Shown here one piece after another: positions 55,162-57,617 of a stretch of 64,000 nt of DNA (the first letter of the stretch is position 1; every line of letters begins with the position of its first letter). The stretch is from Escherichia coli (GTDB lineage: Bacteria; Pseudomonadota; Gammaproteobacteria; Enterobacterales; Enterobacteriaceae), in NCBI RefSeq assembly GCF_013315695.1, contig NZ_CP054353.1. One strand, 5' to 3'. A program made the position numbers and the translations under genes. Below the pieces are notes generated by a model. That model saw nothing but the letters and a program-made list of their open reading frames with translations. It searched no databases and had not been told where the DNA came from.

Positions 55162-56223
55162 TTATTTTTCGCTGGGCGTTTTGCCTTTTTGCAGCGTCTC
55201 TTTCACCTGACCGATAAGCTGACGACGGAAATCCCCGAGGCGTGGCTTGTCATCGTCAAGCCACGGCAGCGGGCGGCAAAGCTCCATAGCTTTAATCCCC
55301 AGTCGTGCCGTCAGAAGTCCTGCACCAATCCCCTGAGCTGCGCGGGTAGACAAACGAGCAGCGAGATCTTGCGACATCCAGTCCATCCCCACTTCGCGCA
55401 CCAGTTCGCTGGCTCCAGCGAAAGCGATATTCAGCAATACCAGCTTGAACAGGCGCAAACGGCTGTAATACCCCAGTTCAATGCCATACAGCGTGGCGAT
55501 GCGATTAATCAAACGCAGATTGCGCCAGGCGATAAATGCCATATCCACCAGCGCCAGCGGGCTGACCGCAATCATCAATGTTGATTCCGCTGCCGAACGG
55601 CTGATTTCGCGCCGCGCCTGGGCATCTAAAACTGGCTGGACCAAATGCGCATACAAACTGACCACTTCACGGTCGTTTTGCGTTTCATGGATTGAGGCAT
55701 ACCAGCGTTGCAGAGCCGGATGTGACTGATCGATGCCCGCCTGCTGCGCCAGTTTTTCGCAAAATGCGCGGCCTTTGCCGGTGCCATGGCTGTGCAATAA
55801 ATCACGCGCTTCGTCGCGTTCATGGGCGCGCTGTCGCAAGCGCCATAAGCGCCGCCACTCTGTTACCACAGAACCTACGCCAGCGCCGATAATCAATGCC
55901 CCTGCGGCACATCCACCCAGCGCTACCCAGTCCTGGGTTTGCCAGGCATTCATTGTCCACTGTACCCCCTGCCCGACAACGCTTGCGCCAAACAGAGCCA
56001 GCCCGCCCATCACCATTTTGCGCCACAGGCTGCGTTTAGGACGTAACGCTGCATCCATTAGCGCTTCAACTTGCCCCTCTTCTTCAGGCGCTTCGTCGAG
56101 TGTGGCCGGGGCAAAATTTTGTGCCTGATTTTCGTCAAAGGTCTGCTGCGCCCTGAATTCAGGATTCTGATCGACATCCAGCGGACCGTCGAAATCAATA
56201 CGTGGTTTTAACGGTTCGGTCAT
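55162..56223 (-). CDS. ycjF: Inner-membrane protein YcjF (DUF697)
   Basis: 353-aa ORF; overlaps the ycjX stop by 4 nt. Confidence 0.9.
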
Positions 56224-57617
56224 CGCAATTTATCTCCTATTAAAAATTCCAGCGCAGCATCAAGGCGAATATGCGGCAGCGGTTTGTCAACATCCATCAC
56301 CTGCGGACGAAACGCCTCAAACTGGAAGCCTTGCTTATCCCAGAACGCCTGACCGGGCAAACGAGCGGGAACTTCGCCAGGATAAACAGTGAGCGGTGCG
56401 CCATCGCTGAGTCGATTACCGCGCAGCGCCGGGATTTTCTCACCGTTAACATCAATAATGCCGCTGGTGGTCGCCTGAACTGACGCCAGCCCCAGGCAGT
56501 CCATGCTGATCCCTTCGAACGCCGCATTTTGCCAGGCATCCTGAATCAGTTGTTGCAGTAATGAAACCATATTAGCGTGCTGATCGATGGTCACATGGTC
56601 CGCTTTAGTGGCAGCAAACAATAGCTTATCGATAACCGGCGAAAACAAACGCCGGAACAGGGTACGCTGCCCGTAGTGAAAACTTTGCATCAGCTGCGTC
56701 AGCGCCAGACGCATATCATTAAATGCCTGTGGCCCACTGTTGAGAGGTTGCAGGCAGTCCACCAGCACAATCTGGCGGTCAAAGCGCAGAAAATGATTCT
56801 TATAGAACCCCTTCACCACCTTCTCGCAATAATAATTAAAGCGCTCGCGCAGCATTCCGGCATTGGTATGCTTATCGGCCTGCGCCAGTTTGGACTCACC
56901 CCAGGCATCGACATCCGGCCACGGGAAGAATTGCAGCGCGGGCGCACCTGCCATATCTCCCGGCAAGACAAAGCGCCCAGGCTGAATAAAGTGCAGCCCA
57001 TGCTGTTTACAGTGGTGGAGATAATCGGTCCACGCGGCGGCAATGTCTGCCAGCCGGTTTTCGTCGGCAGGCGCTAGCGGGTCCAGCCCTTCGCACATCA
57101 TTCGCCATTTCGCCGACCATTCGCCGCGCTGACCATTAAGTAAGCCCGTCATCTGGCGCGACCAGCTTAAATAGTCCTGCGCCAGCATCGGCAGGTCGAG
57201 CAACCATTCGCCGGGATAATCCACAATCTCCAGATACAGCGTGGAGGTATCCTTAAAGTGGCGTAGCAGCGAATCGTTCGATTTAAAACGTAGCGCCAGG
57301 CGAATTTCGCTGACGCCGCGCGTTGGCGTTGGCCAGGCGGGTGGATCGCCATATAACTGCGCCAGCCCTTCATCATAGGTGAAGCGCGGAATGCCAAAGT
57401 CACGCTGGGGAATGCGTTTTACGCCCAGCAGCCGTTCTTCACGCACCGCGCTTAACAGCGGCAACCTTGCTCCGGCGTGAATATTGAGCAACTGATTGAC
57501 CATCGCAGTGATAAACGCCGTTTTGCCGCTGCGGCTAAGTCCGGTTACGGCGAGGCGCAGATGTCTGTCGACACCCCGATTCACCAGCGCATTGAGTTCA
57601 TTTTTAAGTCGCTTCAT
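56220..57617 (-). CDS. ycjX: P-loop NTPase YcjX (DUF463)
   Basis: ORF track 56220..57689; ATG at 57615-57617 gives [35 protein letters not shown]... (465 aa) with Walker A GLSRSGKT. Confidence 0.9.

Follow-up and report, generated by a model that had tools for sequence, protein, structure and literature searches.

The window, a 64,000-nucleotide stretch of DNA, belongs to the E. coli core chromosome and carries the gene pair ycjX-ycjF on its minus strand. The ycjX coding sequence (56220..57617) runs from the ATG at 57617 to the TGA at 56220, with 465 codons before the stop, and the ycjF coding sequence (55162..56223) from the ATG at 56223 to the TAA at 55162, with 353 codons before the stop. 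The outer limits of the pair had been given by a first-pass annotation and are correct to the base. The gene names and the assignment of the products to the YcjX (DUF463) family of GTP-binding proteins and the YcjF (DUF697) family of inner-membrane proteins are likewise verified by Pfam, NCBIfam and RefSeq. RefSeq labels them "YcjX family GTP-binding protein" and "YcjF family protein" in a 100% identical strain.

The locus is already known, and its annotation is ordinary and found in every E. coli genome. Its regulation and its linkage to the phage-shock (psp) genes are published, and a Shewanella YcjX has been crystallised. The pair is nevertheless among the conserved E. coli heat-shock and envelope-stress genes still without an assigned function, and its description as poorly defined is still fair. 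In the literature searched, neither ycjX nor ycjF occurs in a title, and 'ycjF' matches one abstract only, that of an unrelated paper on a plant extract. In papers on evolved or stressed strains, ycjX appears as list entries alone, R278C in a heat-evolved strain and an SNP in a plasmid-adapted strain, and these papers offer no mechanism for it. The PADLOC defence-system models match neither protein at E <= 0.01, and Rfam has no match over positions 52000-60000.

The ycjX start is preceded by an AGGA Shine-Dalgarno-like element (57623..57626, minus strand; ACAGGACAGCAATG), and the upstream alignment shows this AGGA/GGGA column to be conserved. A longer ycjX reading frame of 489 residues from an ATG at 57689 was rejected, as homologue alignments and RefSeq both start at 57617. 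The 24-codon extension of this longest frame contains a promoter-like element.

YcjX matches PF04317 (DUF463) over residues 20-464 and all profile positions, 1-443 of 443, with an E value of 3.6e-181 and 603 bits against a gathering cut-off of 25 bits. Three GTPase motifs of the P-loop Ras-like or TRAFAC type, with G1 as GxxxxGK[ST], occur in order. The G1 or Walker A motif GLSRSGKT, which had been noticed earlier, lies at residues 26-33 (57519..57542, minus strand), and its G26, L27, S28, G31, K32 and T33 are invariant in a 17-sequence alignment. The G3 or Walker B-type DYPG (DxxG) at residues 133-136 (57210..57221, minus strand) sits inside an invariant aligned block. The G4 guanine-specificity-type TKAD ([NT]KxD) lies at residues 337-340 (56598..56609, minus strand), with K338, A339, D340 and H341 invariant. 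The 17 aligned orthologues keep these motif core residues at 47-85% identity. By the motifs and the family homology, YcjX is predicted to be a GTPase.

Structurally, residues 6-464 are homologous to the Shewanella 'YcjX Stress Protein' 6NZ5/6NZ4 (E 3.2e-123 for 6NZ5_A). The Shewanella oneidensis protein (PDB 6NZ4, 6NZ5 and 6NZ6; Tsai et al. 2019) belongs to the same Pfam family and shares with E. coli YcjX the G1 context AVTGLSxxGKTAFIT, a DYPG-containing block and a KxDH block. It comes from another genus, and small insertions follow residues 45 and 440. Neither a dynamin-type GTPase domain nor a partner fold match to known membrane-remodelling proteins was found.

YcjF matches PF05128 (DUF697) over residues 183-341 with an E value of 1.2e-55 and 188 bits (cut-off 27.7), and NCBIfam TIGR01620 over positions 5-329 of 329 with 432 bits (cut-off 160). 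No solved structural relative was found for it. Its AlphaFold2 (AF2) model is all-helical, with a pLDDT of 85, a pTM of 0.75 and a confident long hairpin. The predicted transmembrane hairpin (55864..56016, minus strand) is marked by hydropathy peaks at residues 70-88 and 102-120 and by model helices 66-95 and 99-144 of pLDDT above 90. The two hydrophobic 19-mers have KD values of 1.31 and 1.88, by which YcjF is predicted to be an integral membrane protein. Both outer ends of the hairpin carry basic residues, whereas K and R are absent from its connecting loop, and by the positive-inside rule an N-in/C-in topology is predicted. Taken together, these features predict an all-helical inner-membrane protein whose hairpin would be followed by a cytoplasmic DUF697 domain.

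The DUF697 domain itself (residues 183-341; 55201..55677, minus strand) is all-helical with two hydrophobic helices, and is the best conserved part of YcjF with a conservation of 0.84. Six YcjF residues, D200, D227, R234, Y246, G298 and R317, are invariant across 103 diverse homologues. At the other end, the N-terminal tail of residues 1-65 (56029..56223, minus strand) is acidic, with 15 D/E against 6 K/R, and is modelled at a pLDDT of 56-64. The tail is poorly conserved save K6, F11, F29 and F37, each kept in at least 90% of 76 orthologues, and may be a docking segment. The predicted topology, the conserved tail motif and the invariant charged residues are new here and are testable features of YcjF.

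The two genes overlap by 4 nt, as the first reading had it. At the junction AAATTGCGATGACCGAA, the ATGA at 56220..56223 on the minus strand holds both the ycjF ATG (56223-56221) and the ycjX TGA (56222-56220). Such overlaps are common in bacterial operons and unremarkable alone. However, this one is kept as ATGA or GTGA in 72 of 80 genomes of other species and occurs also at three distant loci (L083-L085). Immediately upstream, the last ycjX codons contain GGAGA (56233..56237, minus strand) in the Gly-Asp of the LIGDKLR tail, a likely Shine-Dalgarno element for ycjF.

Four codons ahead of the ycjX stop, the glycine codon is GGA or GGG, yielding GGAGA or GGGGA, in 70 of the 72 overlap loci. At all five loci with a spacer, where ycjF has its own Shine-Dalgarno element, it is GGC or GGT (Fisher p 1e-6, not corrected for phylogeny). 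Elsewhere in ycjX, only 12.7% of glycine codons are GGA. The retention of the overlap together with the biased upstream codon indicates that the overlap is under selection. Here the pair has both the stop/start overlap and the internal ribosome-binding element of a coupled pair, each conserved in relatives. The translational coupling that the first-pass annotation had inferred thus gains comparative support, new here, as the synonymous Shine-Dalgarno-forming codon covaries with the overlap and favors coupling at the level of sequence.

The conservation of the pair is as wide as had been claimed. Of 5426 complete E. coli genomes, 5415 carry the pair, ycjF follows ycjX directly in 80/80 loci of other gammaproteobacterial species, and three distant YcjF relatives of 27-31% identity all have a DUF463 gene directly upstream. 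The neighbors psp, tyrR and exbBD vary while ycjX-ycjF persists. Together, the adjacency, the conserved overlap and the selected internal Shine-Dalgarno element make a shared function hard to avoid.

These observations weigh against a reading in which YcjX is a soluble stress GTPase on cytoplasmic targets, either proteostatic or ribosome-related, and YcjF an independent membrane protein sharing only the transcript. YcjX does lack any hydrophobic segment, its orthologue was crystallised as a soluble protein, and ycjX is in the heat-shock regulon, many members of which act in that way. Moreover, an AF2 model of YcjX-(GGGGS)5-YcjF built from a 17-sequence paired alignment has a pLDDT of 67 and a pTM of 0.50, and presents no confident interface. 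With both sides taken into account, we regard this reading as quite unlikely. In the linked model, YcjF residues 28-39 gain short beta strands, with a pLDDT of 69 against about 60 for YcjF alone.

DUF697 may be fused to a GTPase domain in some proteins, as a note in the Pfam family description has it. Such fusions would represent the same partnership in one polypeptide and favor a direct functional link. No GTPase-DUF697 fusion is among 120 word-index matches. Every one of these is a close enterobacterial orthologue, and two long entries have an extra ADH_N or ABC_tran domain and no GTPase domain. The 150 best of 1468 YcjF representatives are likewise all stand-alone YcjF-like proteins, the longer ones having low-complexity N-terminal extensions only. 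Separately, a mirror-tree comparison gave a YcjX/YcjF distance correlation of 0.97, but both proteins follow the species tree, and the value was therefore set aside as carrying no information.

Downstream lies tyrR (53473..55014, minus strand), reported as the third gene of the unit. The functional link had been made contingent on co-transcription, and this is documented already, as RegulonDB lists ycjX-ycjF-tyrR as one transcription unit in K-12. The pair here is the same locus, 95-99% identical to that of most E. coli genomes, and it too has a promoter-like element and the read-through geometry. Within the ycjF-tyrR spacer (55015..55161, minus strand), a terminator scan detected no terminator-like hairpin.

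The pair could then be tied functionally to TyrR and aromatic amino-acid regulation, given the shared transcript, the unterminated spacer and the synteny. On the same strand, tyrR comes after ycjF in 69/80 genomes, of which 53 have it within 400 nt. However, this synteny is limited to Enterobacterales, Vibrionales and Aeromonas and may be inherited gene order, and the distant ycjXF pairs have no tyrR. In addition, the upstream region that belongs to tyrR itself holds a palindrome, TGTCAATGATTGTTGACA, at 55102-55085. The TyrR box consensus is TGTAAA-N6-TTTACA, and by it this palindrome is TyrR-box-like. A role in TyrR regulation is therefore very improbable in our estimate.

The first-pass annotation had proposed a promoter search upstream of ycjX, and this yields a sigma-32-type candidate at 57672..57700 on the minus strand. 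It consists of GTTGATA (57700-57694), a 14-nt spacer and CCCCACAT (57679-57672), the −10 element ending 54 nt before the ycjX ATG. It has 11/14 matches to CTTGAAA-N13-15-CCCCATNT, a score that is not significant in the window, where about 20 sites do as well or better, and by itself the motif is no proof. Other Enterobacteriaceae have a CCCCAT.T-type −10 whose distance to the ycjX ATG stays at 43-53 nt. Upstream regions of relatives are enriched in such sites, with scores of at least 11 in 11 of the 80 regions versus 11 of 800 background windows. Experimental work has assigned ycjX a sigma-32 promoter (Nonaka et al. 2006, as quoted in a passage of PMC3041696). The region upstream of ycjX shows no sigma-54-type motif, the best match being 8/11.

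The upstream neighborhood differs widely among genera. In most other Enterobacterales and Vibrionaceae, the pair comes directly after pspABCD, and 65/80 genomes have a psp-family gene among the three nearest same-strand upstream ORFs of ycjX, two of them being Citrobacter loci with only a PspE-like rhodanese, adjoining ycjW. The ORF upstream of ycjX overlaps or abuts its start in many genomes. In E. coli, the ycjM-ompG-ycjW block parts the pair from the psp genes. The neighbor of ycjX in the window is the divergent ycjW, and pspE lies past ycjM, outside the window. The window thus has neither pspA-D contiguity nor a sigma-54 promoter, whereas the contiguity is found in most other genera. A gap of only about 120-140 nt lies between pspE and ycjX in E. 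albertii and others, and the separation in E. coli hence looks like an insertion.

One close comparison is with Yersinia, where the sigma-54/PspF-controlled operon is pspABCD-ycjXF. In Yersinia enterocolitica, the two genes stand in the same order as in the window, and the ATGA overlap is kept at four Yersinia loci (L027, L029, L055 and L079). The difference is in the surroundings. The Yersinia pair is the tail of the psp operon, while in the window ycjW, ompG and ycjV lie upstream and ycjX has its own candidate sigma-32-type promoter. This clearer picture of regulatory rewiring, from psp-operon tail in most genera to a sigma-32 promoter, is also new here. In Escherichia, Citrobacter and Enterobacter, the sigma-32 promoter appears to have come once the ycjM-ycjW block had been inserted.

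Such linkage raises the reading that YcjXF is a dedicated Psp accessory effector, working physically with PspA, PspB and PspC on inner-membrane repair or stabilisation and merely relocated in E. coli. The upstream psp-family genes, the overlapping or abutting upstream ORFs, the Yersinia operon and the short pspE distance in E. albertii and others all speak for it. So does the induction of ycjX and ycjF by phiX174 infection at the RNA and protein levels, together with pspB, pspC, pspD and pspG. However, Yersinia non-polar deletions have robust phenotypes only for pspF, pspA, pspB and pspC, not for ycjXF, and the analysis by Huvet et al. reports only weak physical association with the psp operon. 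E. coli ycjX, lacking the sigma-54 motif, is assigned to sigma-32 and not to the sigma-54/PspF regulon. Moreover, 14% of the genomes that lack every Psp domain have DUF463 genes, and the distant pairs adjoin exbB-exbD-tonB instead of psp, so the Psp link is not obligatory. A dedicated Psp effector is unlikely on this balance.

We favor, as the probable account, that ycjX-ycjF is a GTPase switch module, induced by stress and anchored in the membrane, that belongs to the envelope and heat-shock response. In E. coli, sigma-32 would switch the pair on from the candidate promoter at 57700-57672, with read-through into tyrR. Ribosomes ending ycjX would reinitiate at the overlapping ycjF ATG, aided by the GGAGA in the last ycjX codons, and the two proteins would then be made together in a fixed ratio. 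YcjF would span the inner membrane with its two ends facing the cytoplasm, where it may recruit the soluble GTPase YcjX or be regulated by it, and the two would form a membrane-anchored, GTP-dependent switch.

Because the pair is assigned to sigma-32 in E. coli and lies at the psp-operon tail in most other Enterobacterales and Vibrionaceae, the switch module would most likely act on inner-membrane integrity under heat or envelope stress. Its biochemical output might be signalling, lipid or protein handling, or membrane remodelling. Gene overlap ties a GTPase to a membrane protein here, usually behind the phage-shock operon, and this makes the pair a reasonable candidate for a form of membrane maintenance not yet explored.

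A more ambitious version makes YcjX-YcjF an unrecognised two-component, membrane-anchored G-protein machine. Here DUF697 would be a new membrane-associated helical fold, the tail residues K6, F11, F29 and F37 would dock the GTPase, and GTP would drive an action on the inner membrane in parallel or together with PspA, with lineages rewired between sigma-54/Psp and sigma-32 control. PspA is a bacterial relative of ESCRT-III. To this full version we assign a low probability.

PgrR is listed as a regulator of ycjXF-tyrR. In contrast to K-12, the window strain is missing the ycjY/pgrR block between mpaA and mppA, and hence PgrR is not encoded at its usual place. The resulting contiguous mpaA-mppA junction is found in only 172 of 5426 genomes.

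The ycjX and ycjF genes are two minus-strand ORFs at 55162–57617 with a 4-nt overlap, exactly as the first-pass annotation described. ycjX runs from ATG at 57617 to TGA at 56220 (465 codons) and ycjF from ATG at 56223 to TAA at 55162 (353 codons), and the ATGA at 56223–56220 is common to the ycjF start and the ycjX stop (junction, GGAGATAAATTGCGATGACCGAA). The start at 57617 is RefSeq's choice and the alignment start of all homologues. The longest mechanical ycjX ORF begins 24 codons upstream at 57689 (in-frame extension, 57618–57689), and longest-ORF callers would pick this wrong start. 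The in-frame ATG at 57689 is placed upstream of a promoter-like element and has no homologue support.

The locus is core E. coli chromosome and already annotated. Of the 5426 complete E. coli genomes, 5415 match a 2.8-kb query that includes the pair, 5413 of them along 80% or more of the query, and a few human isolates match it with 100% identity. With ycjF also next to ycjX in all 80 loci from other species, the earlier claim of wide conservation holds. The annotated record, 99.994% identical to the window over 18 kb, names the products ‘YcjX family GTP-binding protein’ and ‘YcjF family protein’ and places ycjW, ompG and ycjV on one side of the pair and tyrR, tpx and ycjG on the other. The pair is already known. 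Its function is poorly defined, as had been noted, and the remaining value lies in that functional question and in specific testable features.

We surveyed one genome per species and obtained 80 loci with YcjX identities of 49–99%, distributed over Enterobacterales, Vibrionales, Aeromonas and Pasteurellaceae. ycjF lies immediately 3′ of ycjX in every one of them. The 4-nt overlap, ATGA or GTGA, is retained in 72, and 8–15-nt spacers occur in five. The other three comprise a 964-nt gap, a mis-assigned start whose sequence is GTGA and an apparent frameshift. The gap, at 7431–8396 of the Rodentibacter rarus locus (L076), is the only long one among the surveyed genomes.

The YcjX C-terminus reads L-x-G-D-K-L-R, and in the 72 overlap loci its Gly codon is GGA (66) or GGG (4), creating GGAGA or GGGGA 10 nt 5′ of the ycjF ATG, while the remaining two carry AAG-GAT in place of this element. 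In all five spacer loci the codon is GGC or GGT and a purine-rich element lies within the spacer instead (Fisher p 1e-6, loci being counted without phylogenetic correction). In the rest of these ycjX genes, GGA accounts for only 12.7% of the Gly codons. Selection for an internal Shine-Dalgarno would leave just such a synonymous-site pattern. Together with the overlap retention, its covariation with the overlap supports the coupling proposed at first pass and is the strongest available support for it.

YcjX matches the whole PF04317 (DUF463) profile with an E of 3.6e-181. The Shewanella ‘YcjX Stress Protein’, whose crystal structures are PDB 6NZ4/5/6, is homologous to it over residues 6–464 (E about 1e-123), essentially its full length. 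The expected Walker A, GLSRSGKT, is at residues 26–33. In an alignment of 17 orthologues with 47–85% identity, three blocks show little or no variation, namely G1 GLSxxGKT, a G3 DxxG block and a G4 [TS]KADH block of the [NT]KxD type. The motif set fits a guanine-specific P-loop switch.

YcjF is a DUF697 protein as previously assigned (Pfam PF05128, E 1.2e-55; NCBIfam TIGR01620), and neither sequence nor profile search found a PDB relative. Its AlphaFold2 model from 103 diverse homologues is confident and all helical (pLDDT 85, pTM 0.75), with an acidic N-terminal tail of low confidence (residues 1–65). In this variable tail, conservation among 76 orthologues is 90% or higher at K6, F11, F29 and F37. 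A long hairpin of helices 66–95 and 99–144 spans the two most hydrophobic segments (70–88 and 102–120), and the helical bundle is DUF697. D200, D227, R234, Y246, G298 and R317 are invariant among the 103 homologues. At both outer ends the hairpin is bordered by a basic cluster, RPKRSLWRK on the N-terminal side and another on the C-terminal side, and K and R are absent from the loop that joins its helices. By the positive-inside rule, YcjF is probably N-in/C-in, nearly all cytoplasmic and on the same side as YcjX.

A promoter motif search 5′ of ycjX found a sigma-32-type promoter-like element at 57700–57672 on the minus strand (GTTGATA-N14-CCCCACAT). Its −10 ends 54 nt before the ATG, which AGGA precedes by 6 nt. 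With 11 of 14 consensus matches it is unexceptional, as the 64-kb window contains about twenty sites of this quality. Scores of at least 11 are enriched in the upstream regions of relatives (11/80 versus 11/800 random windows). In Enterobacteriaceae, CCCCAT.T stays 43–53 nt from the ycjX ATG, with pspD/E upstream as well as with ycjW upstream. The literature (PMC3041696) assigns a sigma-32 promoter to ycjX and lists ycjX-ycjF-tyrR as a transcription unit. The window has no sigma-54-type motif upstream of ycjX, and a terminator scan found no terminator-like hairpin between ycjF and tyrR. The locus matched no Rfam family and the pair no defence-system model.

Upstream, psp-family genes are the nearest same-strand ORFs in 65 of the 80 genomes, representatives being checked by Pfam as PspA, PspB, PspC, PspD and rhodanese/PspE. 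In many of the genomes no gap separates the upstream ORF from ycjX, the two abutting or overlapping at the ycjX start. This context agrees with the published Yersinia operon pspABCD-ycjXF and with earlier surveys. That the pair is a dedicated accessory of the Psp system is a less well supported account. Yersinia deletions lack a robust phenotype, DUF463 is present in genomes lacking Psp, and ycjX and psp belong to separate regulons in E. coli, all of which tempers the Psp connection.

In the window, the ycjM...ompG-ycjW sugar cluster intervenes between psp and the pair, as it also does in six of the 80 genomes (Enterobacter, Citrobacter, Superficieibacter and Siccibacter). E. albertii and some others (L001, L002, L003 and L071 compared) carry no sugar cluster at this position, and their pspE ends 118–142 nt before ycjX. 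It therefore looks as if the ycjW-ompG-ycjV...ycjN block (57773–64000) was inserted between pspE and ycjX, uncoupling ycjXF from psp. Two of the 65 psp-linked loci, both Citrobacter, have only a PspE-like rhodanese adjacent, beside ycjW. In these (L028 and L056, about 4300–5860), the rhodanese gene separates ycjX from the divergent ycjW, so the position at which the ycj cluster was inserted with respect to pspE differs among genera.

Downstream, 69 of the 80 genomes have tyrR next on the same strand, and a TyrR-related role is another, less well supported account. The TyrR box consensus is TGTAAA-N6-TTTACA. The ycjF-tyrR spacer holds a near-perfect palindrome, TGTCAATGATTGTTGACA (55085–55102, minus strand), which resembles it and is consistent with tyrR autoregulation. 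Two distant pairs on gammaproteobacterial contigs (L082 and L083) lie immediately downstream of exbB-exbD-tonB-TPR with neither psp nor tyrR. The invariant unit is the pair itself. Those exbB-exbD-tonB neighbours are another inner-membrane energy-transducing system. A DUF463 gene is immediately upstream in all three very distant YcjF representatives (27–31% identity), and the 4-nt overlap recurs in the distant loci L083, L084 and L085.

The best-supported account is that the pair forms a membrane-anchored GTPase switch module, and the first-pass reading of the pair as a whole is supported. Coupled translation would fix the stoichiometry, and YcjX and YcjF would form a physical complex at the inner membrane, on its cytoplasmic side. 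A linked AlphaFold2 model of the two proteins from a 17-sequence paired alignment yielded no confident interface (pLDDT 67, pTM 0.50). That YcjX is a soluble GTPase, co-transcribed with an unrelated membrane protein YcjF, is less well supported. The switch module may contribute to inner-membrane homeostasis during heat or envelope stress, consistent with the sigma-32 control, the Psp linkage and the induction of both genes by phiX174 infection at the RNA and protein levels.

Two further junctions in the window are unusual. mpaA directly adjoins mppA (spacer, 50954–51135; junction, about 51011–51040), an arrangement contiguous in only 172 of the 5426 genomes, and the intervening block of most E. 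coli genomes is absent. In K-12 this block comprises ycjY, small ORFs and pgrR/ycjZ. PgrR is a listed regulator of ycjXF-tyrR, so its control may be missing in this strain. On the other side (genes, about 61524–63278), ycjT without its N-terminus abuts ycjO without its C-terminus at 63055–63064. The deletion removed the 3′ part of ycjO, ycjP, ycjQ, ycjR, ycjS and the 5′ part of ycjT, and just 4 of the 5426 genomes are contiguous across the junction. The two BLAST pieces overlap there by ~10 nt, suggesting microhomology.
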